Shown here: piece by piece, positions 6,189 through 64,000 of the stretch
How positions within the stretch are numbered: position 1 is the stretch's first letter
Layout: the number at the start of each line of letters is the position of its first letter
Assembly (NCBI GenBank): GCA_021792955.1
Contig: JAJYTP010000001.1
Location: 3,044 to 67,043, forward strand
Length of the DNA: 64,000 nucleotides
Reading direction: 5' to 3'
From: an archaeon
Lineage (GTDB): Archaea; Thermoproteota; Nitrososphaeria; Conexivisphaerales; UBA164
Translations under genes and position numbers: made by a program
Notes under the pieces: model-generated
What the model was told of the DNA's origin: nothing
What the model saw: only the letters and a program-made list of their open reading frames with translations
The model's database searches: none

Positions 6189-6308
6189 GTAGCCGGCCAT
6201 AGCGGTAGGGTTCCACCCGGTCTCATCCGAACCCGGAAGTTAAACCTATCGACGCCGTTGTGCTAGCAAAGTGCGCGAGCCTTTGTGAAGCAACGGTGCC
6301 GGCGATCA
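6189..6308 (+). rRNA. rrf: 5S ribosomal RNA, stand-alone
   Basis: gccggccatagcggtagggttccacccggtctcatccgaacccggaagttaaac...ggtgccggc carries the conserved 5S loop-A/helix motifs (CCAC...CCGAAC..GGAAGTTAA). The GCCGGC termini pair with each other. Confidence 0.85.
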
Positions 6309-12367: not shown

Positions 12368-12415
12368 ATTTTACTGGATTTATAATATCTATCTATCGAG
12401 TTACCATCCAGCTAT

Positions 12416-13402
12416 TTAACTTGACGTTCCGATTTTGTTTATGGCCTTGAATGGAGGCTTCAAAACCCCCTTTTCAGTTATAAACGCCGTAATCAAATCC
12501 GGGGGGGTTATATCGAAGGCTGGGTTAAATGTCTTGATCCCTCGCGGGGCCACCCTTTTTCCCCTTATATATTCAAGTTCAACCGATCCCCTTTCTTCAA
12601 TCTTGGTGGTAGCTTCACTCCCCTCAAGATCTAGGGTTGACAGCGGCAAGGCCACATAAAATGGAATGCCGAACCGCTTTGCTAGGGTGGCTACCTGAAA
12701 GGTGCCTATCTTGTTTATGGTGTGGCCATCGTTAAATACGCGGTCAGCTCCTACGATGACCTTCTTGATCATCCCCCTTGACATAGTGTATCCCACCGCC
12801 GTGTCAGCTATCAGCGTCACATCAAATCCATCCTTTAGGAGTTCATAGGCGGTCAGGCGGGAACCCTGCATTACTGGCCTGGTTTCAGTTGCAAAAACCC
12901 TGAACTTCTTGCCTTTATCCTTTGCTATCCTCAGTGGGGCTAAGGCCGTCCCGTAATCCACGGTAGCCAGGGCCCCTGCATTGCAGTGAGTTAGCACGGC
13001 GTCACCTTCGGATATGAGCGGTTCACCGTTAACGCCTATAAGCCTGGCGTTATTCAACTCTTCATCGAAAATATTTTTCGCTTCCTGTAATGCAGCTCCT
13101 CTCGAGCCGCCAAGGGATGCCCGAAGGACCCTGTCTATGGCCCATGCCAGGTTAATGGCCGTAGGCCTAGCGCCCTTGAGCTTTTCCGCGGTCAAACGGT
13201 CGTCTTGGCTATTCCCGGTTATGTTCTGTGCTAACCCATACGCGCCCACTACGCCTATCAGGGGGGCCCCCCTAACCTTCAGCTCCCGTATAGCTGAAAA
13301 GGCATCATCTACTGACCTGACCTTTATCCACACTTCACGGGTAGGTAAAAGCCTCTGATCGAGGACCGCTATGCTGTCCCCTTCAATTCTGATTGGCCTC
13401 AT
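12416..13402 (-). CDS. eIF-2B alpha/delta-like isomerase (methylthioribose-1-phosphate or ribose-1,5-bisphosphate isomerase family)
   Basis: It carries LDQRLLP...VRGAPLIGV, TATALAPL-like segments, and the C-terminal NPAFDITPPDLI motif of the family. Confidence 0.8.
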   Translation of the reverse strand: MRPIRIEGDSIAVLDQRLLPTREVWIKVRSVDDAFSAIRELKVRGAPLIGVVGAYGLAQNITGNSQDDRLTAEKLKGARPTAINLAWAIDRVLRASLGGSRGAALQEAKNIFDEELNNARLIGVNGEPLISEGDAVLTHCNAGALATVDYGTALAPLRIAKDKGKKFRVFATETRPVMQGSRLTAYELLKDGFDVTLIADTAVGYTMSRGMIKKVIVGADRVFNDGHTINKIGTFQVATLAKRFGIPFYVALPLSTLDLEGSEATTKIEERGSVELEYIRGKRVAPRGIKTFNPAFDITPPDLITAFITEKGVLKPPFKAINKIGTSS

Positions 13403-13497
13403 ACTGCCTTTAATACCGGATACGGTGGTAAATATGCCTTTTTGTACAAGTCAAACATAGATATACAGATAAATGGCGGCCCAGTTATCTTAGACCG

Positions 13498-14469
13498 ATG
13501 TCGGTCAACCAAAGGGAATTCCTACAGAGCGCGTTCAGATGGTATTATTTTAATAGGCAGGCCGAAATCAAAATCCCTACTAGGTTCAGGGAACGAGAAT
13601 TTGGATTCAGGGACTTCGATGGTAACATGAAAAGGCATATTTCGATAGCCGAAGAAAGGGAGTTGACCGCCCTGATAATACAAACCATACCTCGCTCAAT
13701 TTATTCTTCATCTTCATATTACAGGTTTCCCGCGGCCCCTATGGATCAAAAGGGCTGGATCGAAGGGGACCTTATATTCGATCTTGATCTAAAGGAAGTT
13801 AACGCCCGCTGTAAAGCCAAACATGATTTTTGGATATGCGACGATTGTAAACTGGTTGGCAGGCTGCCGCCCCCTCTAACATGTTCAAGGTGCGGTTCAA
13901 AGCGCATATCCAAGGTCGAATGGATCTGCGATGAGTGCCTTGGTAAGATCAAGGGGCAGACCGTTTCTCTGATCCAGATGCTTCATGACGATTTTGGTAT
14001 CAGGCACGATGAGCTTTCGGCATATTTTTCCGGGAACCACGGTTATCACATTTCTGTTAGTTCGGCCCTATACAGCGGCCTATCGTCCAGGGAACGTACA
14101 GAAATAGTTGATTACATAAGGTTAAACGGGTTTACGGGCGTTGGGCAGAGAGCTCCATCTTCGGCCCTAGCCATAAAGGTTGATCCATCTGTCTCCATGG
14201 ATGTGCACAGAATATTCAGGCTCCCCGGATCGCTGCACGATAAGAGCGGCCTGTCAAAGAAGGAGTGTGATGAACAGCTATCTGATGATCCGTTTGATTC
14301 GGCGGTGGCCTTGCGTGAAGATCCGGTTAAGATCAGGATAACATACGCGCCTCAGATTAAACTAAAGGGTCAGGTTTTCGGGCCGTACAAGGATGAATCA
14401 AAAACTATCCCCACATATGCTGCGGTATACCTGATGCTAAAGGGGCTTGCTGTTGTTGAAGCTACATAA
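13498..14469 (+). CDS. priS: DNA primase small (catalytic) subunit PriS
   Basis: The catalytic motif is DLIFDLDLK. The zinc knuckle is CDDCK...CSRCGS...CDEC. FSGNHGYHI and RIFRLPGSLH are also present. Confidence 0.9.
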   Translation: MSVNQREFLQSAFRWYYFNRQAEIKIPTRFREREFGFRDFDGNMKRHISIAEERELTALIIQTIPRSIYSSSSYYRFPAAPMDQKGWIEGDLIFDLDLKEVNARCKAKHDFWICDDCKLVGRLPPPLTCSRCGSKRISKVEWICDECLGKIKGQTVSLIQMLHDDFGIRHDELSAYFSGNHGYHISVSSALYSGLSSRERTEIVDYIRLNGFTGVGQRAPSSALAIKVDPSVSMDVHRIFRLPGSLHDKSGLSKKECDEQLSDDPFDSAVALREDPVKIRITYAPQIKLKGQVFGPYKDESKTIPTYAAVYLMLKGLAVVEAT

Positions 14470-14506
14470 GGTAAGTTTTTAAGAACAACATCCCATTATA
14501 ACTGGC

Positions 14507-15067
14507 ATGAATGATATAATAGATGTGATGATAAACATACTCAACCGCGAGCTAGCCGATGGCGGTTTAGGTGAAATCCCTCCCGACTTTTATGAAGCAT
14601 TATCCATTAAGGTAAAGGAGCTTGTACTGCTGGAGACTACCAGCCCTTCAAGCGAAGGGGCGGAGTCCGTAACGGTATATCGCGACCTGGTCAACGGGCT
14701 GATGGAGGACCTGGTGGATATAAGGGTGAGGAAGGCGTTAAACCAAGCGATTTCAGGAAAGGATATTGTCAACCTGACAGAGGAGGAGAAGAGGGTAATT
14801 GAGCCAGTATACGAGCTGATCAGGCGGTCCCGCCTGTTAAAGGATGACATCAGACACGGGCTTACCGAGAGCCTGAGGGTGGCGCACTCCAAGCAGGAGC
14901 CTCATTATAGGCTAGTAAGGTTCATCGAGGCAACCGACAAGTTCATAGGGGCAGACCTTAAAGTTTATGGCCCATTTGATAGGTCTGATGTGGCCGACGT
15001 GCCTAGGGATAACGCAAAAGTATTAATAGACAAAAATATAGCGATAGACGTCAGTGTATTGGAATGA
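14507..15067 (+). CDS. Probable GINS subunit (Gins51/Gins15-like)
   Basis: The size is about 186 aa with a helical N-domain. Its position immediately after priS matches the conserved archaeal priS-gins arrangement. No diagnostic motif was seen. Confidence 0.45.
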   Translation: MNDIIDVMINILNRELADGGLGEIPPDFYEALSIKVKELVLLETTSPSSEGAESVTVYRDLVNGLMEDLVDIRVRKALNQAISGKDIVNLTEEEKRVIEPVYELIRRSRLLKDDIRHGLTESLRVAHSKQEPHYRLVRFIEATDKFIGADLKVYGPFDRSDVADVPRDNAKVLIDKNIAIDVSVLE

Positions 15068-32436: not shown

Positions 32437-32559
32437 ACGCGATGTGGGGTTCAGCTTTAATTTAACCGTTTAGGATTTTTTGGAGCATGTCAGGACGCCA
32501 TATATCGTAAATGCATATGTTAAATATCTGAGGAACCTTACCGTGCAGAGGGGGTCCTG

Positions 32560-35061
32560 GTGAAACTAAGTGAGCTGGTGAATTCTATAAGAAGCAAAAG
32601 GCTGGACCCTGATAACCGCGGCATAGTAATAAGGAAAACCCCGGTGGAACTGCTTGAGCGCGCTTCCAGAGCTATGCGGTTTGACAAGGTCCCCAGTACC
32701 ATGGATCTCCTGTCAGGGTTGTACAAGGGAGAGCGCCTTGGCCATGCACTGCGCTTGTATTTTGCTTCAGAATATTACCGAATTCCCCCTAGGATTATCA
32801 GCTTCAACGGGCATTCGGCTGTAATTCAAAGCGCCAATGTTCGGAGGTACAGCACTAACCGGGCTATGGCAGAACGCATAATGACGATTACAAACTCGGC
32901 GCTCTTAGCCAGCGGCTATACTATATCTTCAAATGGAGGACCAACGGGCGCGGACTATGGGCGTGATGTAGCAGGCCAAAAGTTTCGGCATCATGTTGAC
33001 GGTATCAATACACCAGCGCTGTTCCTTAAGATGGGCTTTACTGGAGGCGGTTTTCGCCTTCGCTTCTACCAGGGGTCGCAATTTTCCCGTATGGTGATCG
33101 CACACCAGGCCGCAGCCGAATTGTATGGCTTGTCATCCACATCCTATGCATGCCATATAACGGGCCTAGGAGAAAAATTATTCCTGTATTTTTCCGACGA
33201 GGTAGCTCCGCCAAGCACGCTGCCGAACCCCGACCCCAAGGCCGCTGATGCCGCCGGGCCTAAACTGCTTGATATGGGTGAACTTCTAGCGCCATCGTGG
33301 GTGCTTGACGCGATGATGGAGAGGGGACTGTTCAACTACAGTTATAAATTCACCAGCGTGCCTATGAATGTAAATCAAGCGCTTGAACAGGCAAGAACTA
33401 GCGGCTTCCTGCATCCAAACTTTTCACTGCCACTACACGCGCTTTCCTTCGACAAGCTTAAATCGCTGAAAGAGGGATTTATTGGAGTCCTCAATGGAAC
33501 TGCGCATTTTAGGGCCGCAGCCACCAGCGCGTTAATGGATATGGGTATCCTGACCGGATATGAAAATGGAACGCTACTGGTAGGTGGATATCCTGGTGAA
33601 GTCCTGGGCAACATCCTTGAGGGGCTTGATGTCAAAGGCCTGACCTCGATGGACGCCCTTGAAACTGATTGTGGATTTAAGATGGTCTCTGCAGGTCAGC
33701 CGGTAACCCTTGTAATCCCCTTAAAACAAAACGAAGCCAAGCCTGTTAAGACTGCCCACGGAATATTTCCTTCAATGAACGGAAACCTGTTGGATGATGA
33801 CAGGGTCGCCGTCAGATCGCCTCTGCGCTACTGCGTTCACTGTATGACTGAAACGCCATACCGAATTTGCCCTGCATGTGGGGAGATCACGGAACCGGTA
33901 TACACCTGCACACACTGTAAAAAGCGCCTCACTTCGGCCACCTGCCCTTACTGCGGTCATTTGACGGTACGGGAATATAGCAACGAAATTTCCGTACGCC
34001 CTCTGTTGCAATATGAATCACATAAGGTCTCCCTAAAGCCATTGGAACCCCTAAAGGGGATTACGCCCGTAGATAATACTGAGCTGGAGAATTTGGGTAA
34101 GGCGCTGGTTAGACAGTATCACTCACTGATGGCACAAAGGACTGGGATAGTTACTGTCAAGGTGGATATGCAATTGGCTACAGACAATTGGGATAAGAAT
34201 ATGATGGTGACATATACTAATAAATCTGGCCAGGCACTGAAGGTCGACGAAATAATGTTACCTGTAAGGGCGGCGAACGCGCTCCTGGAAGCCTCCAGGT
34301 ACATAGATGATGAGCTGGAGAGAGTGTATGGGCTGGAGCCATACTACAAATTACAATCGGTAAGCGATTTATTGGGCCGATCGATAGTTGGGTTGGATGC
34401 CGGCTCACGAATTGGATTATTGGGCCGAGTCGTTGGAATACTTCAGGGAGAGTCAGGCCTTGCTAGGGACGAATGGGTTTTTACAATCAACAGGGCAGCG
34501 CCTAGCCTCTCCGTAAATATAATTCTGCTTGGTGATCTCCTTTTGAACTTTTCGGGTCTATATGTACACCCTGAACGAAAGCTGGTTTTATTCAAGCATC
34601 CAGCCATATCTCATCCGTCTATGATTCCAATAAACGTCGGCAGGCCGCGCAACCTTCTTAATGCAGAACAGATTGATGACCCGTTCTATTTAGCCGGGTT
34701 ACAGCTTGATGCTATAAATAGGATGGCGACTACATTTGATAACCGCTTAAATGTAATGGTAAGGGAGGTTGTATTACCGCTCCTTAGCGGTCTGGAGCAG
34801 CTTCTATCCACATGGGGGCTGACCTGTGCGTCATGCGGCGCTCCAGCAGGCGTTGCTGGACTGAGAAATGTGTGCGCTGTGTGTGGAGGCAAGCTTGAGC
34901 CTTCATATTCGATCGAAAAGCTCAAAACCATAATCAACAAGGCCAATCTCCTGACCGGTAAATTAGAGGGCGGCACCTTAGATGAATTAAACATAAGCAT
35001 AGAAGCGCTTAGATCGCTAGTCAAGTCAAAGAAGCAGTTTTCACTTTCTGAGTACACCTGA
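32560..35061 (+). CDS. PolD large-subunit (DP2)-like protein, truncated and lacking the catalytic Asp triad (GTG start)
   Basis: Blocks shared with canonical DP2 are GGGFRLRF, a double CxxC zinc cluster followed by LKGI, YIDDELERVYGLEPYY..GLDAGSRIGLLGRVVGI, LLGDLLLNFS, and the C-terminal CxxC..CxxCGGKL. The NCDGDED position reads AAPSLSV. Confidence 0.7.
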   Translation: MKLSELVNSIRSKRLDPDNRGIVIRKTPVELLERASRAMRFDKVPSTMDLLSGLYKGERLGHALRLYFASEYYRIPPRIISFNGHSAVIQSANVRRYSTNRAMAERIMTITNSALLASGYTISSNGGPTGADYGRDVAGQKFRHHVDGINTPALFLKMGFTGGGFRLRFYQGSQFSRMVIAHQAAAELYGLSSTSYACHITGLGEKLFLYFSDEVAPPSTLPNPDPKAADAAGPKLLDMGELLAPSWVLDAMMERGLFNYSYKFTSVPMNVNQALEQARTSGFLHPNFSLPLHALSFDKLKSLKEGFIGVLNGTAHFRAAATSALMDMGILTGYENGTLLVGGYPGEVLGNILEGLDVKGLTSMDALETDCGFKMVSAGQPVTLVIPLKQNEAKPVKTAHGIFPSMNGNLLDDDRVAVRSPLRYCVHCMTETPYRICPACGEITEPVYTCTHCKKRLTSATCPYCGHLTVREYSNEISVRPLLQYESHKVSLKPLEPLKGITPVDNTELENLGKALVRQYHSLMAQRTGIVTVKVDMQLATDNWDKNMMVTYTNKSGQALKVDEIMLPVRAANALLEASRYIDDELERVYGLEPYYKLQSVSDLLGRSIVGLDAGSRIGLLGRVVGILQGESGLARDEWVFTINRAAPSLSVNIILLGDLLLNFSGLYVHPERKLVLFKHPAISHPSMIPINVGRPRNLLNAEQIDDPFYLAGLQLDAINRMATTFDNRLNVMVREVVLPLLSGLEQLLSTWGLTCASCGAPAGVAGLRNVCAVCGGKLEPSYSIEKLKTIINKANLLTGKLEGGTLDELNISIEALRSLVKSKKQFSLSEYT

Positions 35062-44785: not shown

Positions 44786-46171
44786 ATGACAAGCAAAAAA
44801 ATTCTGACTGCAGCAATCATAATGGCAATAGTAATAGTAGGTGGCATGGCTTGGTACGGGTTATCCTATCCAGCTGCCAATGCGCAGAAGGAAACATACT
44901 ATATCCAGCTAACGGATCCACCAACGGTTCCAACGGGGACCAGCGCGCTGACGCTCAACTACAGCGCAATAGCCCTGCATGTTGAAGGAACCGGGTGGAT
45001 TAACATCAACGCTTCGGGCAGCCTGAACCTCATGGCACTACTGAACGTAAGTGAACTGATAGGAATGGCGCAGGTACCCAACGGGTCCGTAATAAATCAG
45101 GTAAGATTCGTCATCAACTCCTCGAGCATAACGGTGAACGGCACTACATACAACGTGGTTCTGGCTAACAAGATGCTGGAGGTCCCGGTGTTGGGTGCGA
45201 GCAAGGCGTCTACAGCCGCTATCCTGCAACTCTCCCCCGTAGTAGTGCAGACGTTCGTGGGTACCACCCCCGTCTTCTTCATGGTGCCTTCGGCCACGGC
45301 AGTTACAGTACAGAATGGCATTAACCAGAACACGAAGGTCGCCTTAGGAGACATGTACAACATCAGCAATAGAACGAGGTATGACCTCGAGAATGCACAG
45401 GGCAATGTATCTGTAGTGGCTGCAAGCCTTACATCATCTGGAAACAGAACCCTCCTTAGCCTGACGCTTAAGAACAACGGAAACACATCCATATCGCTCG
45501 AGTCGGTGGCCCTTAACGGCTGGTTTACCCTAACGGTTCCACCAGTAGTCGTATCAGGGCGGACGTTCAATGGAACCATATTGGTTGAGAACGCATCCAT
45601 TCGCACCGATGCCTTGTTCTTGGTTAACAACACCAACCTAGTCCCAATAGCCACAATGTTACCTCATGAATTCAGGCCGATGGGGATAATAGCTTCAGGC
45701 GATGGACGGTTCAACTTCATCAATAAATTCAGCATAGGGCAGGGCCTATCAGGCGGATTTAATACAGAATCATTCATTCAGGGCAATGAGAACGGGAAGG
45801 GAAACGGAAACGACCAAGGCAATATGAATGGCCAAAATAACAGGAATATGGGAATAGGCAATTCGGTGGTAGCCCTAGACCAAAACGGGGGTGGCGACAC
45901 AGGCGGTGAACAATTCCAGTTCGGAGTTGAGCCTGCGAACGTGTCGTTCAACTCAGGCTATATAATAAAGGCTAACCAGATAGCTACCTTTACATTCAAT
46001 GGCACACTTACATTCCTTACACCAGGGCCAATAGGAGCAGGTTTCAATGACAACATACCCATTACGCTGATGAGTTCGGCCTACTTGACGCCAATAAGCG
46101 GGTTCAACTACACACTGCTTGCTGCACTAACTCAACGTACAAAGGTGGTCACAACTGTGACCGCCGCCTAA
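44786..46171 (+). CDS. Secreted or membrane-anchored surface protein (DUF4382-like N-domain, Asn/Gly-rich low-complexity segment, many N-x-S/T sequons)
   Basis: The N-terminal anchor is ILTAAIIMAIVIVGGMAW. YYIQLTDPP...LNYSAIALHV resembles DUF4382. The low-complexity segment reads GNENGKGNGNDQGNMNGQNNRN. Confidence 0.55.
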   Translation: MTSKKILTAAIIMAIVIVGGMAWYGLSYPAANAQKETYYIQLTDPPTVPTGTSALTLNYSAIALHVEGTGWININASGSLNLMALLNVSELIGMAQVPNGSVINQVRFVINSSSITVNGTTYNVVLANKMLEVPVLGASKASTAAILQLSPVVVQTFVGTTPVFFMVPSATAVTVQNGINQNTKVALGDMYNISNRTRYDLENAQGNVSVVAASLTSSGNRTLLSLTLKNNGNTSISLESVALNGWFTLTVPPVVVSGRTFNGTILVENASIRTDALFLVNNTNLVPIATMLPHEFRPMGIIASGDGRFNFINKFSIGQGLSGGFNTESFIQGNENGKGNGNDQGNMNGQNNRNMGIGNSVVALDQNGGGDTGGEQFQFGVEPANVSFNSGYIIKANQIATFTFNGTLTFLTPGPIGAGFNDNIPITLMSSAYLTPISGFNYTLLAALTQRTKVVTTVTAA

Positions 46172-47708: not shown

Positions 47709-48524
47709 TTGTTGAATATAATCAAAAGGGATGGACGCAGGGAACCCTACAGGCGGGACAAGCTGTTCGCCGGCATCCTAAGATGCTCGAATTATGCAAT
47801 AGCGGATAAGGTGGTTCGCATTGTGGAAAACAGGATCCAGGCTACAGGCGGTAACGCAGATATTACGGCCGACGAACTGCATAACATGGCGCTCGAAGTG
47901 CTCCGGGTTGAATCCCCTCCATCAGCGCTTCGCTATGATCTGCGGAGATCGATTATGAAGCTGGGTCCAAACGGTTTCGCCTTTGAAGACTTCATAGCGG
48001 ATATGCTCAGGTTGGAAGGAAAGGATGTGCTGGTGAGGGTCAAGGAGCGAGGAAAGTGCGCCCTGCACGAACTTGATATAACATATGAAGAGGAGGGAGG
48101 CAGGCATTTCATAGAATGCAAGTATCATAACGAATATGGGATATATACGGGGCTCAAGGAGGCCATGTACACTTATATGAGGTTGCTAGACCTAAGGGAC
48201 AATGGTTTAGGTTACACAAACTGCACCCTGGTAACAAACACGAAGGTATCATGGGAAGCGGTCGACTTTTCATCCTGTAAGCACATGAACGTCATAGGTT
48301 GGAACTTCCCACCGGGCCATGGGCTTGAAAGGACCCTCGAGAGGCTAAATATGTACCCCGTCACAGTATTGGAGAAACAGCTACAGCCGGAGCAGGTATA
48401 CCACCTCCTTAATGAGCACATAGTCACGCTCAGAGATCTGATAGCGGCCTATGATGGTGGCAGGCTTGACAAAGGCTTTGAGAGTTCGGTTAACCTGTCC
48501 AGGGAAACCGTTTCAAACGGTTGA
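47709..48524 (+). CDS. ATP-cone domain protein fused to a PD-(D/E)xK (Mrr-like) nuclease domain (TTG start)
   Basis: The N-terminus IIKRDGRREPYRRDKLFAGILR is an ATP-cone. The central segment reads FEDFIADMLR...HELDITYEEEGGRHFIECKY (D...ExK). Confidence 0.6.
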   Translation: MLNIIKRDGRREPYRRDKLFAGILRCSNYAIADKVVRIVENRIQATGGNADITADELHNMALEVLRVESPPSALRYDLRRSIMKLGPNGFAFEDFIADMLRLEGKDVLVRVKERGKCALHELDITYEEEGGRHFIECKYHNEYGIYTGLKEAMYTYMRLLDLRDNGLGYTNCTLVTNTKVSWEAVDFSSCKHMNVIGWNFPPGHGLERTLERLNMYPVTVLEKQLQPEQVYHLLNEHIVTLRDLIAAYDGGRLDKGFESSVNLSRETVSNG

Positions 48525-51749: not shown

Positions 51750-54506
51750 TCAACGCCTATAGCGCAGGAGCGCCCCTATCCCACCAAAGCTCATGAACAT
51801 TACCCCGGCCTCTGACTTGGATGAGATCACTTCAATTTTGCTGCCCACGGCCGTCCCCCTGTCATATAGGTAATCCACTAGATCCTGTGTTTCAAAGTTC
51901 CAGGTGTCCTTACCGCATGTGGGGCACCTGGCATCGCTCATCGTAGTCCTAAACGAAAACATATCGGATTCCTTGACGAAATCCTCCCTATTATATCCAC
52001 AATTTTTACATATGGTTTTTACAAATTTCATATTAAGGTCTTCCGAAATCAGGATCGTATTGGCGCTTGCATCCCTTATGCTGTCAAGCACGGGCTTCAG
52101 GCCGTATACCGCCAGCCCCTTGGGCTTTGATGCCTCCGTTATGAACTGCTCCACGAGCTTCTTCTCCTGTATCACCCTCATGTTTTCCAGAAGCCCCTGT
52201 CCTCTGGTGAGCGTTTCCCTGATCCCCTCTTCACCGGCATAGCCGGTATCGATCTCACCTATGGTCATCTTCTGCAATCTATAATCCATATATTCGCCCT
52301 TGAAAAAATCCTCCTTGGTCATGCCTGGACCGCTGATTATCAGCGCCTTTATTGGCCTATCACCCAGGAATATCTTGGTAGCATGGGCAGCTACCCTGTG
52401 GAAGTAGTCGTTTATTTCGTTCTCCCTTATCCTCTCAAACCTCCTAGCCGACTGACCTCCCTGTCTGTGCTTGCCGCCGACGCCACTGGTTATCACCTGA
52501 ATGACATCTACCCTGTCCCCGGATATAGTCCCGTAGCCCGCCTCGGAGTTGTCCATGGAAAGTATGCCTATCAATTCCTCCTCCCTTAATAATGACCTGA
52601 GGATGTCGAGATGGAAATGGTCGTCGCAATTGTGGACCATAAACCCGTTGGCAAAGAAGGAATGATCCCCTCCATCAAGCGTCAGGTCCCTTACATCGTC
52701 TAGCTCCACCAATTCAGTGGAGACTACGTTCTCCCAGAGGAGGAGCTCATCAGGCCTAACCCTTGAGGCCGCCAGCCACTCAGAATACCCAGATACGGGC
52801 GCCGTTCCTAAAATCGATGTTACAATGCCGCCAGAACTGCGAGTTTGGATCGTTCGCCCTGCAATATTTAGAGAATTGGGGACCCCTAGGATGTCACTGT
52901 CCGAACTTCCTCTGGATACATGGGTAATTTCGGCGCTTGTCGAAGAATGATAATATGCCCTGATTCTCAGATATTCACCCAGGAGCTGCGCCTTTGACGC
53001 CTTCCCTTCCGAATATCTGAATCCCACTGCATGGCATAGCTTCAGTATATTTTCTTCCGTATGATCGAATAGAAGCTCAAATTCAACAGCCCCTGTGTCA
53101 TCCATAAATGAATCCATGGGCCGCGTCATGATGTCGTAGATCTTAATTCCGAAGTTTGTAAATAGGCGCGAAACATCCCGCGCAAATTCCATGCCTTCTT
53201 TATACATTCCTTGGGGCCTGTGGAACACAGCCCTGCCTGAAACTAGATGATCTGAACCCGATATGGCTGGGGCCTGACCGTCCCCACCCATATAGGCCGC
53301 TAGGAACTCCCGCTGAACTTCAGCAGGCGCATTAAACAGCCAATCCGGCACCATAGGCATACCTCCGAGGATATGACCGCGGCCAGCGCCCAGAGCCATT
53401 AATAGCATATAGATCGCTGGGTCTACAACCCTTATGTTGATCGCATTATGGGGCCTGCCCTCAGCGTTCGAGTTACCCTCTGATGCAGTTAGTCCAACCA
53501 GCCGGGTTGCTGCTCTCAAGGACATCAAGTCGGCCCTGATATCCTCTGCGGCTGAGGAATCTTCGGCATAAATGTCAATAGAGTAAACGGGGCGCTGTTT
53601 TCCATCAGTGATCCTGGCCGCAGGGCATGAAGAGCTTTCACTAAGCATATACCCTAGAATACGCGCTACAATAGGTAATTTGGGATTATCGAACTTCAGT
53701 GGCAGAAGCGCCAGCTGTTTTAGCCTTTTAATAGCAACATCGATATCCATTGGAGGATAGTGCGCGCTTTTTATAGGCCCTTCATCAATAACTATTTTGT
53801 CGCCCCCAGGGTCCACTTTCTGGAAGTACATGTCATCTAGAGGATAGACACATACTAGGTCTCCAGGTTTTATATCTACTATATTCTTCCAGCCGGCTGG
53901 CGTAAAAAATGGGTGATCTTCAGTAGCAACTATAGTCCTCCCACTCTCGCTGGTGAGGCGGTAAACCTTCCGCCTTCCTGCCACCGTCCGAATGTAGCCT
54001 TTTATTCGGGCCCCAGTTATCTGCCGCCCATTATCCTTTGTTGACCTTATGGTTTCACGGCTCCATGACGATCCAAGTTGGCCAATGGTCCTTTGCAGCC
54101 CATTCTGCAGGAAGATCCGCGTATCTGGCGAAACGCATCTGTAGAGATATGTAGTAACCGGCTTTGGAGGGACGATTTCATAGGTTCTTATCTCCTCATC
54201 CTTTGTGCTTCCTTCCACAGGAAGCGAACCTCCAAATATGATCAGGCCAGTATCAGGTGGCTGCTTATATAGCTTCAACTTCTGCATTATGCGCGTCAAC
54301 GCGTCCTGCACATGCGTCCTGGTAGTATCGCTTTTGATATTTGACGCCGTCCCGTATTCATCCTTTAGCTCATTTACTACATCGTAAATCGGCTTTTTTG
54401 GCGGAATGTATAGGGATACCAGTTCTGTGCCGTGGCCCGAAATATTCCCTAGCTCCAGCAAAAGCCTCTTTATCTTATACGCCGCAACTGAATTATATTC
54501 ATCCAT
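51750..54506 (-). CDS. prf1: Peptide chain release factor aRF1, interrupted by an in-frame intein
   Basis: NIKS motif (TASNIKS), GGQ motif (HRQGGQSARRF). The exteins total 415 aa and re-join as ...TYLYR|CDDHFHLDIL. Confidence 0.92.
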   Translation of the reverse strand: MDEYNSVAAYKIKRLLLELGNISGHGTELVSLYIPPKKPIYDVVNELKDEYGTASNIKSDTTRTHVQDALTRIMQKLKLYKQPPDTGLIIFGGSLPVEGSTKDEEIRTYEIVPPKPVTTYLYRCVSPDTRIFLQNGLQRTIGQLGSSWSRETIRSTKDNGRQITGARIKGYIRTVAGRRKVYRLTSESGRTIVATEDHPFFTPAGWKNIVDIKPGDLVCVYPLDDMYFQKVDPGGDKIVIDEGPIKSAHYPPMDIDVAIKRLKQLALLPLKFDNPKLPIVARILGYMLSESSSCPAARITDGKQRPVYSIDIYAEDSSAAEDIRADLMSLRAATRLVGLTASEGNSNAEGRPHNAINIRVVDPAIYMLLMALGAGRGHILGGMPMVPDWLFNAPAEVQREFLAAYMGGDGQAPAISGSDHLVSGRAVFHRPQGMYKEGMEFARDVSRLFTNFGIKIYDIMTRPMDSFMDDTGAVEFELLFDHTEENILKLCHAVGFRYSEGKASKAQLLGEYLRIRAYYHSSTSAEITHVSRGSSDSDILGVPNSLNIAGRTIQTRSSGGIVTSILGTAPVSGYSEWLAASRVRPDELLLWENVVSTELVELDDVRDLTLDGGDHSFFANGFMVHNCDDHFHLDILRSLLREEELIGILSMDNSEAGYGTISGDRVDVIQVITSGVGGKHRQGGQSARRFERIRENEINDYFHRVAAHATKIFLGDRPIKALIISGPGMTKEDFFKGEYMDYRLQKMTIGEIDTGYAGEEGIRETLTRGQGLLENMRVIQEKKLVEQFITEASKPKGLAVYGLKPVLDSIRDASANTILISEDLNMKFVKTICKNCGYNREDFVKESDMFSFRTTMSDARCPTCGKDTWNFETQDLVDYLYDRGTAVGSKIEVISSKSEAGVMFMSFGGIGALLRYRR
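52629..54137 (-). mobile_element. Intein (503 aa) with a LAGLIDADG homing-endonuclease domain, inserted in aRF1
   Basis: Block A is CVSPDTRIFL. Block B is IVATEDHPFF. The LAGLIDADG-like motifs are VARILGYMLSESS and REFLAAYMGGDG. The C-terminus is FANGFMVHN, followed by the +1 Cys. Confidence 0.85.
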
Positions 54507-55237: not shown

Positions 55238-55454
55238 AAAGAAGCCCTCTAAGGTCCACGCGGTGATTCCTCCCCATACCCATTGCAAGGTATGCGGAAA
55301 GGCCATACCGGAGGGACAGATATATTGTAGCAAAGCATGTCATGATAGGGATGAGGGGGCGCGTAAAAGGGAAAGGCGTACCATGTGGATATTCTACGCC
55401 ATATTCTTCGTAGTGATGATAGGGATGTTCCTCTACATCTACGTGATAAGGTAA
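55230..55454 (+). CDS. DUF2116-like zinc-ribbon protein with a C-terminal TM helix
   Basis: It carries HCKVCGKAIPEGQIYCSKACHD, a basic linker, and the hydrophobic stretch IFYAIFFVVMIGMFLYIYVI. Confidence 0.55.
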   Translation: MSEKKPSKVHAVIPPHTHCKVCGKAIPEGQIYCSKACHDRDEGARKRERRTMWIFYAIFFVVMIGMFLYIYVIR

Positions 55455-56039
55455 ACTACTGGTTATAAATGGGCAGGATATATACATGCCACTTCCCTTA
55501 TTGGGTAAAAAGGCCTAGTTTGAAATGTCTTCTTGTTGATGTACATGTTGATATCGGAGAACAGGCTTCAAGTAATAGTGCCCCGGGCGGGAGTCATGGC
55601 CTGAGGTAGAATTCTCTGACATGCCCTTCTCATGTACAATCCTGTTTACATCCTTTTATTTGCCTCCAGAGATCCCATTAAAGCCAATAAGGAATTTTCG
55701 CTGCATTACACGAATCGCCTGCAGCCCTGCACCTATCCACGCTATAAATAACAGCACAGTTTCGTTAGATGCAGCATGCCGCATGGAATACAGTTCTGGG
55801 ATGGCGCCCTCATTGATAAACGCCAAAACTGCTGGTTGAACGAATGGGTTAGGCGTGATGTGGTATGATAGTGGAACAATTTGAAAGGTCCAGGCTGCAT
55901 CAGTATATATGTCAGGCCAAGGGATGAGAAACGACATTTAACACATGGGGGTTTCCCAGGGTTCCTGCTGAGCGTAAGGTCCATTGTACTCTGCGGTGCA
56001 GGTGCCTAGCTCGTTCCCGAGCATGACCAGTACTGTGGC

Positions 56040-56830
56040 GGTGAACACGAAGTAGCTAGGAAGCTCGGGGTGTTGCAGGCAGCCGTAAGCAAGTGGCACA
56101 GCGCATATAGGGATGGTAGAGGTTATGATGCACTCAGGAGCAGGGCCACACAGGCCGCCCTTCTAAGCTGGACGATGGACGGCTGCGGGACCTGCCTTCT
56201 ATCCTGTTAAAGGGCGCTGAGCAGTACGGCTTCTCCACGGACATGTGGACGGGTGAGAGGGTGTCAAGGGTTATGGAGGAGGCATACGTGGGTGCGCTAT
56301 TCACCGTCTCAGGTCGTAAGGATACTCCATTCTCCCAACTTCTCCTGGCAGAAGCCAGAGGGGGTCGCCAGGGAACATGACGAAGAGAAGGTGAGGGAAT
56401 GGGTTAAGGACGAACTGCCAAAGATAAAAAAAAGCTGGATGAAACCGACGGCCTCCTCCTGATAGAGGATGAAACGGGCTCTCCATGATCTCTCTCATGG
56501 GCCGGACATGGGCGCCGGTCGGGAAAACACCCACAATGGAGTACAACTTCAACTGGAAGAGGCTAGCTGCCATGGGTGGAATAACGCTGGAGGGAAGAAT
56601 ATACTCCAGGGTCCATAACGTAACCATCAGGCAGGAGCAGGTAATGGATTACCTCGTACAGCTGTAAAAAACATATAAGAAATCGGCACGTTGTCCTCCT
56701 GTGGGATGGATCCCCAACTCACATGGCGAAAGCGGTGTTCTCCGAGGTATGGGAGTACGCTTACCTATCCCTCGGCAGGATGTATAAGAGGTGGCATCAG
56801 AAGGAGCATACAGGAAAATAAAGGAGTATA
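56040..56830 (+). mobile_element. IS630-family transposase remnant with several frameshifts and stops and a truncated DDE domain
   Basis: The pieces lie in three frames. They are AAVSKWHSAYRDG..YDAL, GRPSKLDDGRLRDL..LLKGAEQYGFSTDMWTGERV, VRYSPSQVVRILH..FSWQKPEGVAREHDEEKVREW, and DETGSPMISLMGRTWAPVGKTPT. Confidence 0.7.
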
Positions 56831-56974
56831 ATAAGCGCAGGAATTTCAGTCCTCAATATATGGATTAACCCTGTTCCTTACATAGTGGCACGATGAACAT
56901 CATCGGTGAGCGTAGTGCGGGAAGCCTGCACGTTCGACGAGGGGCCGCAGAGTAAGACCTGCGGTCTACTCTAT

Positions 56975-58231
56975 CTATGTGTAGTTTGGATATGGTGGGA
57001 TAATGATTTTTGAGGTAGCAAGATTTGAAGGATACACGGTGTATAATGTGCCATTTTGCCATTGGACAATTACAGGTTCAGCATCAACATTAGTTCCAAT
57101 AGAGTTAAAATGTATCTCATTTTCTGGTAAAATTCCTCCTGGGAATGTTGATGTGTGTAATGTTTCATCTATAGTAACTGGATTTGCTGAATGAGCAAGA
57201 TTTATTGCATCAGCTATCACTATAACTGCTTGATAATAAGCCCCCGCTGCTTCTGGCATAAAATAACCATATTTTTGTTCATATTGCGCGTTAACTTGCA
57301 TAGCCAAGGATTTGTTTTCATAAGCGTTATATGCTGCAGCAGTAAAGATAAGATTAGAGTAGTTACCCACTTGACTATAAAATTGGGGTAATGGAAAGCC
57401 ACCAGATCCACCTATAATAGGGATGTTTAACCCTGCTTGGCGTAGCCCTTCTACTATTAACGTTGAATCATTTAGGTATGATGCTTCCAATATTATTTGT
57501 GGTTTTGCTGCTTGGACCGCTTCTACTATTGGCCCTGCACTAGTAAAATTACTTGTAGAATATGGATCAACTGAAACTACTTGATAAAAGGGATTACTAC
57601 TCACATCTGCTTGTACTGCTTGAGCTACTCCAGCGCCATAAGCGTCATTATCATATATAATAGCTACCCTTGATGCATTAAACCCCATTGATTTCAACGT
57701 TAAAAGAAAATTGTACATTGTGTTTCCAAATACTGTTGCATTAGGTGCTATTCTGAATCCGTAGGTATAATTTAATGAAGTCGCAATATTGGAAAAAGCT
57801 ACAAATATTAAAGGAATTTGGTATTTTTGGAAAAGTGGTAAAACAGGTAGAGTTAATCCACTAGAATAAAGCCCAACGGCCGCAGATATATTTTTATGCG
57901 TTGAAAGAAAGTTCTGAACTATGCTGTAAGCTTGGGTGGAGGAGCTTGTAGTATCAACAGAAATTATAGTTATGTTTGCCCCCTTTAATCCCCCGTAATT
58001 GTTAATATTTTGTGCCGCAAGTTCTGCAGCTTGTAAGCAAGTTATTCCAAAATATGATAAGGAACCACTAAGTGGAAAGAAAGCTGCCACATAGACAGTT
58101 TTAATTGGTTTGGGCGCAGTGACACTTTTGTAATAATATCCACCACCTATTGTCGCAACGACAATTACTATTATTACAACTACAACTACAGTAATTTTAG
58201 AAATAGACCTGTGGCGATTTTTTTGGTACAT
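56975..58231 (-). CDS. ABC-transporter substrate-binding protein, LivJ/LivK (branched-chain amino acid) type, N-terminally membrane-anchored
   Basis: The TM anchor is ITVVVVVIIVIVVATIGGG. VYVAAFFPLSGSLSYFGITCLQAAELAAQNIN matches the type-1 periplasmic binding protein family. It is visibly AT-richer than its neighbours. Confidence 0.7.
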   Translation of the reverse strand: MYQKNRHRSISKITVVVVVIIVIVVATIGGGYYYKSVTAPKPIKTVYVAAFFPLSGSLSYFGITCLQAAELAAQNINNYGGLKGANITIISVDTTSSSTQAYSIVQNFLSTHKNISAAVGLYSSGLTLPVLPLFQKYQIPLIFVAFSNIATSLNYTYGFRIAPNATVFGNTMYNFLLTLKSMGFNASRVAIIYDNDAYGAGVAQAVQADVSSNPFYQVVSVDPYSTSNFTSAGPIVEAVQAAKPQIILEASYLNDSTLIVEGLRQAGLNIPIIGGSGGFPLPQFYSQVGNYSNLIFTAAAYNAYENKSLAMQVNAQYEQKYGYFMPEAAGAYYQAVIVIADAINLAHSANPVTIDETLHTSTFPGGILPENEIHFNSIGTNVDAEPVIVQWQNGTLYTVYPSNLATSKIIIPPYPNYT

Positions 58232-61619: not shown

Positions 61620-64000
61620 CTATATTAACTGCCCACAGAACACTTCCCAGTTCCTGGTATCAACATTGTCCATGCAAATGGTAACCCGATCAGCTAGAGC
61701 CGCACACCCTATCTCGATCAGGAGCTCACGTGCCTTACTCAGATACCTGTATGCCTCCTTTGGTCGCCCCCTCATGGACTCCATGGCCCCCATCCAGGCT
61801 AGCACCCTTGTGCTTGATACCCTGTCGCCCGATAAAAATTCTCCGGCACGAGAAAAGTTCTCAGCGCTTTGGACGTATTTTCCTTCTGCGGTTAAAAGTA
61901 CTGCCTTTGCCAATTCAAATACCCCCAACACGTCCTTATCCTTGATCCCTTTGATGATGTTCGCAATCTCCAGCTGATCAGCATGGGCTTCCTTTAACAG
62001 GCCCTCCTTCGTGTACAGTATCATTCTTTCAGCAGATGCGTATGCCAGCATATATATAAAGCCTGAAGCCCTGTAACTATCTATGGCCATGTCGAGGTAA
62101 TGGTGCGCATCATTCAGCCTTCCTTCAATGGCCTCAAGGACATAAGCAATATGCAGGTCGCAGTAACCTAATAGAGATCTCAGCCCCTTACCTTTGAGGG
62201 TTTCGCGAACCTCCATCAGGTCGTGGAGCGCGGCGTCAAAATTCCCCTTGAGGAAACTTATATAATCAATGTTGAGCCTGTTGACGCAGTAGCCCCGTAC
62301 ATCATGATATTTGGCATCTATCTCCATGCTCTTTGACATCCCATCGAGCGCCTGCTCCAGCTTCCCCTCTTCAAGGTACGCCTCCGCCGTATTATATAGA
62401 ATTCTGGAGACCATCAGAGGCTCAAGCCCGGGCTCGTCGAGGGCCTGCTTATAGTAAGAATGAGCCGTCTGCAATTCGCCTAGCTCCTTAAATATAATGC
62501 CCAGGCTGTTAAGGGCCATAGCCCTTACCTTGCAATCCCCGTTTTCCTCGGCATACTTGAGGGAATTTAATAACAGTTCCTTGGCTAGATCCAGATCTCC
62601 GTCAAGTGACCTTACGGCGTACCCCTTTACCATGGATATCCAGCACAGCATGCGTCCGTCGCCCACGGCGGGTGCCCCCTGTAGGATGTTCAGCAATACA
62701 TTTCCATATCCTTCATCGATAAAGTAGGCATACTGTTTGAGTATTTCAATAACCATTTCGGAATCATTGGCCCTTATAAAATGATATAACGCTTCGATCC
62801 TATCAGGCGTGTCCCTTTTTCCTAAATAATAGCCCGCCGCCTTCCTGTGTAGCTCCGCGCTGGAGGATAGCATCTTATATGCAGCCTCCCTGATAAGGGG
62901 GTGAAGCTCGAATTCATCCCCGGTCATCGTAATGATCCCCAGCCTATCCATGGATAGCAGAAAGTTCAACACGGCGCCTCTTTTCACGCCTTCATTTACG
63001 GCGTTAACGGCGGGGATGGTTATACGGCCACGATACACTGAAATCGATAGCAGCGTTGAAAGCTGCTCTTCATGCAACTTATCGAAAATGGTCTCGCCTA
63101 TAAAATCGTTCACATCAGCGTCCCCAAACTCTGAAGCCAGGTCAAGCAACAGCGGGTGTCCTCCAAGTTTTCTTATGAGTTCCTGTGAAGGCGGCCGCCC
63201 TCTGGCTTTCATCAACTGCGCTGCGTCATCATCGTTAAGGCCATTTATTTTCAATTCCCTGGCATGCAATATGGGTATTCTGTTTCTCGAAGTGACAAGG
63301 GTTGTAATCGCATTGCTATTGGCCATCGCTTCCAGGAGGTCCATAATGCCCTTATCGCCATATCTATGAAAATCATCAAAGACCACCACCGCCCGGGTGG
63401 CCGACAGCTCGCTTATCGCCAGGTCTATCAGCGCCCTTTTATCCATCGCCTTCATATCTATGGCATCTAATAGGCGCCTGTGGCCCAGCTTATTCAGGAA
63501 AATTGCTAATTTGGAGATCAAATATAGAAGGCTGTCCACCTGCATAATTTGGTGCCAAAAGACTGGCGCATTGTCTAACATGTCGTCCGCGAACTTGGCT
63601 GCGATGGTCGTCTTGCCTATACCCGGTATACCCCATATTACTATGGCCCCTTTCATACCCCTTAGATATAGCAGTTCCTTTTCCCTGCCTACAAATTCTG
63701 GGACATTCGGTATCTCCGATCTGTAGAACGGAACGGCCAGGTCCAAGCTTTCCCGGGCATACCCCTTTAGCCTGACCTGTATTCCCTTTGGGTTGAACTC
63801 CAGAAGTATGTTGCGCGCATTAAAGTGATACTGTTTTACGTTCTTAAATCCGTCGACGGTCTCGATTCGTGCCCATTTATCGGTGAGCAGGCCCGCGGCC
63901 TTTAATTTTCCCAGCCTTTCTGAGATATGCGATTCCAGCATCCCAGTCAAGTGGGCCAATTGTCTGGGATATGATGGGCCTGTCTTCAAAAGACAAAGGA
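61620..64000 (-). CDS. wHTH - STAND/AAA P-loop NTPase - TPR repeat protein, N-terminus beyond the window edge
   Basis: The ArsR-like wHTH reads SYPRQLAHLTGMLESHISERLGKLKAAGLL. Walker A is GIPGIGKTT and Walker B is VVVFDDFH. The C-terminal 400 aa or so carry TPR-like A/Y/L repeats. The frame is open upstream of the TTG at 63989. Confidence 0.7.
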   Translation of the reverse strand, partial: LCLLKTGPSYPRQLAHLTGMLESHISERLGKLKAAGLLTDKWARIETVDGFKNVKQYHFNARNILLEFNPKGIQVRLKGYARESLDLAVPFYRSEIPNVPEFVGREKELLYLRGMKGAIVIWGIPGIGKTTIAAKFADDMLDNAPVFWHQIMQVDSLLYLISKLAIFLNKLGHRRLLDAIDMKAMDKRALIDLAISELSATRAVVVFDDFHRYGDKGIMDLLEAMANSNAITTLVTSRNRIPILHARELKINGLNDDDAAQLMKARGRPPSQELIRKLGGHPLLLDLASEFGDADVNDFIGETIFDKLHEEQLSTLLSISVYRGRITIPAVNAVNEGVKRGAVLNFLLSMDRLGIITMTGDEFELHPLIREAAYKMLSSSAELHRKAAGYYLGKRDTPDRIEALYHFIRANDSEMVIEILKQYAYFIDEGYGNVLLNILQGAPAVGDGRMLCWISMVKGYAVRSLDGDLDLAKELLLNSLKYAEENGDCKVRAMALNSLGIIFKELGELQTAHSYYKQALDEPGLEPLMVSRILYNTAEAYLEEGKLEQALDGMSKSMEIDAKYHDVRGYCVNRLNIDYISFLKGNFDAALHDLMEVRETLKGKGLRSLLGYCDLHIAYVLEAIEGRLNDAHHYLDMAIDSYRASGFIYMLAYASAERMILYTKEGLLKEAHADQLEIANIIKGIKDKDVLGVFELAKAVLLTAEGKYVQSAENFSRAGEFLSGDRVSSTRVLAWMGAMESMRGRPKEAYRYLSKARELLIEIGCAALADRVTICMDNVDTRNWEVFCGQLI

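Follow-up and report, generated by a model that had tools for sequence, protein, structure and literature searches.

The locus and its features

The window analyzed here is a 64-kb stretch of contig JAJYTP010000001.1, and its subject is a forward-strand gene at 32560–35061 that encodes a catalytically dead homolog of DP2, the large subunit of the archaeal DNA polymerase PolD. In most archaea PolD is considered the essential replicase; Crenarchaeota have lost it altogether. The encoded protein appears as JRN19_02840 in metagenome-assembled genomes (MAGs) at NCBI, where it is annotated as a hypothetical protein; these source MAGs are named 'Nitrososphaerota archaeon' and derive from acid-mine-drainage sediment. 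The gene and its parts are listed below with amino acid positions (aa) and the basis of each assignment, where pLDDT is the predicted local distance difference test score of our structural model, dN/dS the ratio of nonsynonymous to synonymous substitution rates, DPBB a double-psi beta-barrel and PIP a PCNA-interacting protein motif.

32520–32556, + strand: putative expression signals before the GTG, namely a TATA-like TTAAATAT (32520–32527) and a Shine-Dalgarno-like run GAGGGGGT (32549–32556), as read from the sequence
32560–35061 (stop codon included), + strand: whole gene, catalytically dead DP2 homolog of 833 aa; intact open reading frame (ORF), GTG start
32560–32679, + strand: N-terminal helix region, aa 1–40, the canonical DP2 motif A..AR..GxDP being kept as SIRSKRLDPD (column alignment)
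32761–33018, + strand: KH-like or anchor remnant, aa 68–153, with PIRxxGGT deleted (gapped motif columns; pLDDT <50)
33025–33294, + strand: DPBB-1-like barrel, aa 156–245 (start of the hhalign match; beta strands at aa 143–245 in the model)
33832–33954, + strand: Zn-I/Zn-II double zinc ribbon, C425, C428, C437, C440, C450, C453, C462 and C465 (Pfam DZR, PolC_DP2_central)
34087–34113, + strand: clamp-2 motif kept, E510..K514..R518, canonical PExLEKGILR (invariant in canonical and dead DP2s)
34231–34575, + strand: DPBB-2 core with dead active site, aa 558–672 (Pfam PolC_DP2_cat; pLDDT ~90; dN/dS 0.14)
34501–34515, + strand: former catalytic triad, P648-S-L650-S-V652 replacing D-G-D-E-D (alignment columns)
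34663–34959, + strand: C-terminal helical bundle and Zn-III, aa 702–800 (four Cys, C756/C759/C772/C775, at 34825–34884)
35035–35058, + strand: candidate C-terminal PIP-like box, Q826-F-S-L829-S-E-Y832-T833 (motif match)

Homology to DP2

An earlier reading of the sequence alone (the sequence-only reading) had proposed that the protein is a collinear and shortened relative of DP2, and this similarity was upheld by Pfam, phmmer, hhalign and Foldseek. The profile searches gave significant matches to the DP2 family, with PolC_DP2_cat found at aa 558–672 (E 5.4e-21, Pfam), PolC_DP2_central at E 7.4e-7, and no match to PolC_DP2_N in the window protein. Comparison of the protein with PDB sequences by phmmer recovered the DP2 chains 6knb_B and 6hms_B at E ~3e-17, and hhalign against 33 canonical DP2s placed aa 156–832 onto canonical columns 306–1128 with a probability of 100 and an E of 2.6e-43. 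An AlphaFold2 model built from an alignment of 22 relatives reached a pLDDT of 73.4 and a predicted template-modeling score (pTM) of 0.67, with a confidently predicted fold from aa 156 on and a pLDDT below 50 at aa 68–153. When this model was compared with the PDB by Foldseek, PolD DP2 chains were the best and the only significant matches (E 4e-37 to 4e-26), the next match having an E of 0.13. About 300–400 residues of DP2 have been lost, and the equivalog cut-offs of NCBIfam were not reached (126.2 vs. 1269 bits for PRK04023 and 71.2 vs. 702 bits for TIGR00354). Taken together, the alignments show collinearity with DP2 along the protein, starting at the N-terminal helix and ending at the putative C-terminal PIP box.

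Residues lost and residues kept

The residues that canonical DP2s share were examined by merging the alignment of the window family with that of the 33 triad-bearing DP2s, canonical numbering being that of the reference P0057. Among the 171 canonical columns with at least 90% conservation, 60 are kept and 33 are deleted in the window DP2. The three invariant Asp of the active site (D931, D933 and D935) are gone, their columns being occupied by P648, L650 and V652. The sequence-only reading had named exactly these three residues (34501–34515), on the ground that the segment from GLDAGS to LLNFS is ungapped and sets INRAAPSLSV opposite KRRNCDGDED; the phmmer alignment has the same arrangement, and the profile merge gives the same columns with no Asp in them. 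K926 and R927 of the KRR motif are gone as well, and the window DP2 reads AGSR where APHTS stands in canonical DP2, a loss that had also been noted. For the G..MDAP block, of which G957 and D961 are gone, the earlier reading was right that the Asp is absent and wrong in register, since MDAP falls opposite F678-K679-H680-P681, two residues before the KHPAI it had proposed. Elsewhere, G640, R641, E643 and R648 of the GRPEK block are gone, the invariant canonical K399 of the first barrel is replaced by E205, and PIRxxGGT (canonical P132/I133/R134/A136/G137/G138/T139) is fully gapped in the window family. In Pyrococcus abyssi PolD, PIRxxGGT adjoins the first template nucleotide and has a template-guiding role (PMC6355029). 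Taken together, the alignment columns show that every residue class needed for polymerization has been lost and that the window protein would be incapable of polymerization by the two-metal mechanism known from PolD.

Other residues are retained. In the N-terminal helix, R11 and D16 align to canonical R17 and D22, and D16 is near-invariant among 22 dead DP2s. Both barrel scaffolds are kept, as are GGGFRLRF (aa 162–169, 33043–33066) in the DPBB-1-like barrel and D659-LLNFS, and the eight Zn-I/Zn-II Cys are invariant both in the 22 dead DP2s and in the short group described below. The sequence-only reading had credited the protein with all of its zinc modules, including a C-terminal one that binds DP1, the small subunit of PolD. 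All 12 Cys are indeed present; the spacing given for Zn-III in that reading (x15) is wrong, the actual one being C759-x12-C772, and the DP1-binding motif is missing. In canonical DP2 the KxRRxP loop of Zn-III docks into DP1 (PMC6355029), and R1106, R1107 and P1109 of this loop are gone in the window DP2, where RRxP has become G764-V765-A-G767. A C-terminal Qxx[LI]xx[FY] was found in nearly all dead and canonical DP2s.

Relatives of the window protein

Searched exhaustively with phmmer, 1.84 billion representatives yielded 262 matches, and the best-scoring relatives all lack the triad and APHTS. In a neighbor-joining distance tree of the MAFFT alignment, which has long branches and was used for grouping only, the dead DP2s separate from the triad-bearing ones. 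A short group of 685–833 aa consists of the window protein, P0003, P0030, P0042, P0077, P0051, P0139 and P0064, from Nitrososphaeria MAGs; a second dead group has forms of 1011–1060 aa; a full-length dead group of 1075–1150 aa comes in part from Conexivisphaerales MAGs; and a fourth group comprises NCNGDxD forms from Hodarchaeales. Within the short group, where identity is only 20–25%, the invariant positions are essentially the 12 Cys, E510/K514/R518, D659, Q826 and L829. The full-length dead forms retain the RR(P) of Zn-III, as do P0064, P0139 and P0051; it is reduced to PPL or PTI in P0030, P0042 and P0077, and absent in the lineage of the window protein and P0003. With this docking loop gone, the window genus looks like the most degenerate stage of the series, and its link to DP1 may have been weakened or lost.

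Host lineage and published record

The sequence-only reading had pointed to Thermoplasmata, which did not hold. A species-representative genome set contained only two matching loci (L007 and L008), and the second of these, at 92% identity, lies on assembly JAJZYL01; according to a 2025 preprint, the genus JAJZYL01 ('Acidarchaeum') belongs to family UBA164 within the Conexivisphaerales, so that the lineage is Nitrososphaeria, Conexivisphaerales, family UBA164 (UBA164 itself being assembly GCA_002499005). The sequence-only reading also knew of no described inactivated DP2 family. Kazlauskas et al. (2020, NAR; PMC7544198) had reported inactive DP2 together with inactivated DP1, and no active DP2, in a group of Nitrososphaeria that are not ammonia-oxidizing archaea, naming as members UBA160, UBA164 and a Thaumarchaeota MAG with DP1 NAY82623 and DP2 NAY82641. 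Their Fig. S16 aligns the inactive DP2s of this UBA164-like group with those of Heimdall B3/LC3 and Aenigmarchaeota, and they judged conclusions premature (PMC7544198). Inactivated DP2 in family UBA164 is thus already on record, though uncharacterized. New in the present work are the anatomy at residue level, the evidence for selection, how widely the dead clade extends and the syntenic association with a dead DP1 and Orc1/Cdc6.

Gene neighborhood

In the window the DP2-like gene is followed by SHMT, TFX and DUF2070, the last of these 2 kb downstream of it, and a block of ValRS, eRF1 and AA-kinase genes is retained at 49.4–55.2 kb. In a related Conexivisphaerales MAG (locus L018, GCA_038872495.1) the order is ValRS, eRF1, AA-kinase, DP1, Orc1/Cdc6 and, after further genes, PcrB and a full-length dead DP2. 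The L018 DP1 (456 aa, PF04042) aligns to P. abyssi DP1 at E 2e-41 and reads SNLNVGS for SDIHVGS, GHLSQ for GHVH, and GDKDA where the H451A-mutant structure 6HMF reads GNADA, the wild-type GNHDA being deduced from the mutation; by these three changed motifs it is nuclease-dead. The two arrangements are bridged by L019, one of 3 loci found in a metagenome scan with P0064 as query, which carries a 701-aa short form directly after PcrB, DUF2070 upstream, and at the locus edge a fragment of Orc1/Cdc6, the 10-kb flank ending inside that gene. The chain of shared neighbors through the window, L019 and L018 supports a single ancestral DP2 locus for the short and the long dead forms.

DP1 adjoins the dead DP2 locus in L018, whereas none was found for the window genus. 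As the sequence-only reading had stated, there is no DP1 homolog nearby, either in the window or in the ~5–10 kb past either end, and the contigs that extend past both window ends contain no DP1, PolB or Cdc6. Searches of all six window frames with the L018 DP1 and Cdc6 likewise yielded nothing (E >0.5; tblastn, phmmer).

This arrangement bears directly on the interpretation of the sequence-only reading, in which the gene is an extra inactivated paralog that regulates or scaffolds a canonical DP1–DP2 PolD encoded elsewhere in the genome. Judged from the window alone such a separate PolD locus is conceivable, as neither DP1 nor a canonical DP2 lies near the gene, and the retained Zn-III Cys and PIP box would suit a protein of this kind. 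Against this, the nearest relatives are all dead with no active sister copy seen, microsynteny ties the short forms to a single full-length dead DP2 near a dead DP1, family UBA164 had no active DP2 in the published survey (PMC7544198), and the DP1-docking RRxP is lost. The dead nearest relatives, the microsynteny and the survey make it more likely that the window gene is a degenerate ortholog, and we consider an extra paralog unlikely.

Several further observations were made around these genes. The synteny with L018 breaks after the AA-kinase gene, at 55240–56980, where L018 has DP1 and Orc1/Cdc6 and the window has small ORFs only (DUF2116, HTH_33); frame-shifted fragments at 56.0–56.8 kb resemble a decayed transposase, and no remnant of DP1 or Cdc6 is detectable there. 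A 461-aa ORF at 44786–46171 (+), considered as a degenerate DP1, had no Pfam or PDB sequence match and was rejected for want of support; its position is conserved in the related contigs L001 and L002. The eRF1 gene of the window (51750–54506, −; 918 aa) is split by an intein, with domain 1 at aa 14–123, domains 2–3 at aa 646–917 and an Intein_splicing match spanning aa 159–626, and the syntenic eRF1 of L018 is intein-free at 415 aa.

Arguments for and against residual catalysis

A protein that has lost the known active site might still be an enzyme, whether through a non-canonical polymerase active site or through a new catalysis built on the two-barrel scaffold. Two features speak for this, namely that the rewritten catalytic loop INRAAPSLSVNI is strongly conserved, being identical in the window protein and its 71%-identical ortholog P0003, and that D613 and D659 are conserved in the close family. 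The wider comparison points the other way: in the short group invariance among acidic residues is limited to E510 and D659, which are retained in canonical DP2s too, and no conserved replacement acidic cluster was found in that group, which argues against a relocated active site. In addition, the nucleotide and template contacts KRR, APHTS, GRPEK, K399 and PIRxxGGT have all been lost together. We therefore hold continued catalysis to be quite improbable.

Selection on the gene

The identical protein is present in several NCBI, ENA and Logan assemblies, a 92%-identical form with an intact ORF and the same neighbors was found on at least 12 contigs, and a JGI metagenome contains P0003, the ortholog with 71% identity. 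By the Nei-Gojobori method, dN/dS was 0.15–0.18 overall: comparison with the 92% forms gave 0.17, and comparison with the 71% form, at dS ~1.2, gave 0.15. Individual segments had values of 0.08–0.22. The ratio is well below 1 in all segments, the dead DPBB-2 region included, which shows that every segment of the dead DP2 is under purifying selection and that the gene is not a pseudogene.

On contig L009, which carries the 71% ortholog, an IS605 OrfB/TnpB-type gene (197–1444; HTH_OrfB_IS605, OrfB_IS605 and Cas12f1-like_TNB domains) overlaps the DP2-like gene where the latter begins, at 1441, and stands where an FAD-oxidoreductase neighbor sits elsewhere.

The massive loss of conserved residues and domains, together with the gradient of degeneration across the clade from 1150 to 685 aa, might suggest a functionless relic decaying after PolD became dispensable. 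This explanation has very little left to recommend it in view of the low dN/dS in all segments at dS up to ~1.2, the intact frames of every contig and of the 71%-identical ortholog, the invariance of 12 Cys and the PIP residues among proteins that are 20–25% identical, and the fold confidently predicted from aa 156.

Finally, copies in the P0007 and P0064 clusters are named 'rRNA maturation endonuclease Nob1' and 'rRNA maturation protein Nop10' in IMG and hypothetical protein at NCBI, and a zinc-ribbon RNA-processing factor of this kind, for which only these automatic names and a weak Foldseek match to Nob1 (E 1.5) speak, can be set aside almost entirely given the lack of any Pfam match to PIN, Nob1 or Nop10 domains and a predicted whole-length fold that is that of DP2. 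The names appear to be misannotations driven by the zinc ribbons of DP2, which are shared with Nop10 and RpoP-like ribbons (PMC7544198). A pentatricopeptide-repeat match at aa 33–84 (E 4e-4) was dropped along with them as zinc-ribbon or low-complexity helical similarity.

A probable structural adaptor derived from PolD

The explanation that we consider probable is that the gene is a degenerate, non-catalytic descendant of PolD DP2 that thermoacidophilic, non-ammonia-oxidizing Nitrososphaeria have kept as a PCNA-tethered, zinc-stabilized structural adaptor. An adaptor of this form is favored over other roles because, throughout the dead clade, selection keeps the three zinc modules, the clamp-2 residues, the two barrels and the PIP box. 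In the sequence of events that we envisage, PolD would have ceased to act as replicase in the lineage, presumably through takeover by a family B polymerase as in Crenarchaeota, and the DP2 scaffold would have been retained for a structural job. By its motif the C-terminal box may still reach PCNA, and clamp-2 may still bind duplex DNA. The adaptor would then bind DNA or the replisome with no DNA synthesis of its own, another polymerase replicating the genome.

Several points weigh against this explanation. That PolB has replaced PolD in this lineage is an assumption, and the statement that the organism has no canonical DP2 or DP1 elsewhere comes from the literature (PMC7544198) and refers to sister MAGs that are 70–84% complete. 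The first 155 residues of the window protein are poorly modeled, and its PIP-like box ends in Thr and not in an aromatic residue. With RRxP lost, one obvious partner is gone too, and for the window genus the scaffold idea becomes less specific.

That a polymerase-dead DP2 is under purifying selection shows it to be of further use apart from catalysis. Moreover, the dead forms provide a natural series for the replacement of a replicase and for the remaining work of its scaffold, running from 1150-aa dead forms through forms of ~700–830 aa to those without the DP1-docking loop. Conexivisphaera calida, a cultured member of the order Conexivisphaerales, makes the question testable.

Other features of the window

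Apart from the dead DP2, a single gene related to replication was seen in the window, a 323-aa ORF at 13498–14469 (+) that lies 18 kb upstream and weakly matches the DNA primase small subunit (PF01896, E 2.7e-9). A cluster near the contig end (2196–5494, and likewise on L010/L011) consists of an N6_N4_Mtase DNA methylase, two ORFs with no Pfam match, an AAA_16/nSTAND3-like ATPase and a small HTH_17 (excisionase-like) gene, and may be an integrated element or a defense island. STAND-type ATPases of 789–821 aa, with AAA_16/NB-ARC and TPR repeats, are encoded at 61620–63989 (−) and on L014 at 12390–14855. A 271-aa protein (47709–48524, +) has the unusual combination of an ATP-cone (E 5e-11) with weak Mrr_cat/AF1548-like nuclease matches, and a 5S rRNA gene (6189–6307, +; 81.6 bits) stands alone, with no adjacent 16S or 23S rRNA gene in the window.

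Comparison with known systems

Compared with canonical DP2 (P. abyssi, 6HMS/6T8H/9F29), the window protein has the same domain order, two barrels, the Cys of Zn-I, Zn-II and Zn-III, the E/K/R of clamp-2 and a PIP motif in the same position, but lacks the Asp triad, KRR, APHTS, MDAP, GRPEK and PIRxxGGT and is shorter by about 350–440 aa. Closer in kind is the full-length dead DP2 of L018 (P0037/P0189), with which the window protein shares a dead triad (NYENNNT in L018), the zinc modules, the PIP box and the PcrB/DUF2070 synteny chain at ~22% identity; the L018 protein differs in having 1067 aa, in keeping PolC_DP2_N and a YRRPP docking motif, and in lying within 6 kb of DP1 and Orc1/Cdc6. With the inactive DP2 of the UBA164 group (PMC7544198), a comparison made by published description only, the window protein has in common the GTDB family, the loss of the active site and a lineage without active DP2, whereas the window genus JAJZYL01 also lacks the RRxP of Zn-III and has no DP1 near the gene; the published work gave no account of selection, domain loss or retained motifs. 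The DP2s of Heimdall B3/LC3 (Hodarchaeales), reported as inactive alongside the Nitrososphaeria group and co-occurring with a PolB that bears a C-terminal domain (B10; PMC7544198), resemble the window DP2 in their disrupted triad (NCNGDxD, RCNGVSD) and have a full-length architecture, but belong to another phylum and in most members retain two of the three Asp.

Outside the DP2 family, the C-terminal half of Pol epsilon with Dpb2 and the inactivated PolB of archaea are likewise cases in which a replicative polymerase fold is conserved without catalysis. The archaeal PolB case is reportedly that of Rogozin et al. in 2008. Dead relatives of the window DP2 are paired with an inactivated DP1, a B-subunit homolog, as the inactive half of Pol epsilon is with Dpb2. 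The folds are unrelated (palm vs. two-barrel), and the analogy would be functional only. We offer, as a tentative proposal that we think considerably less probable than the adaptor itself, that the dead DP2, with a dead DP1 where present, might be an essential non-catalytic organizer of the replisome in archaea that use family B polymerases for synthesis, holding PCNA, and perhaps also CMG or origin factors, on the DNA. If this were true, these archaea would be a living intermediate of the switch from PolD to PolB as replicase that Crenarchaeota and the ancestors of eukaryotes completed, and the window genus, its DP1-docking loop lost, would represent the most advanced stage of that transition. 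The dead DP2 would then parallel, in archaea, the inactive but essential half of Pol epsilon and its partner Dpb2.

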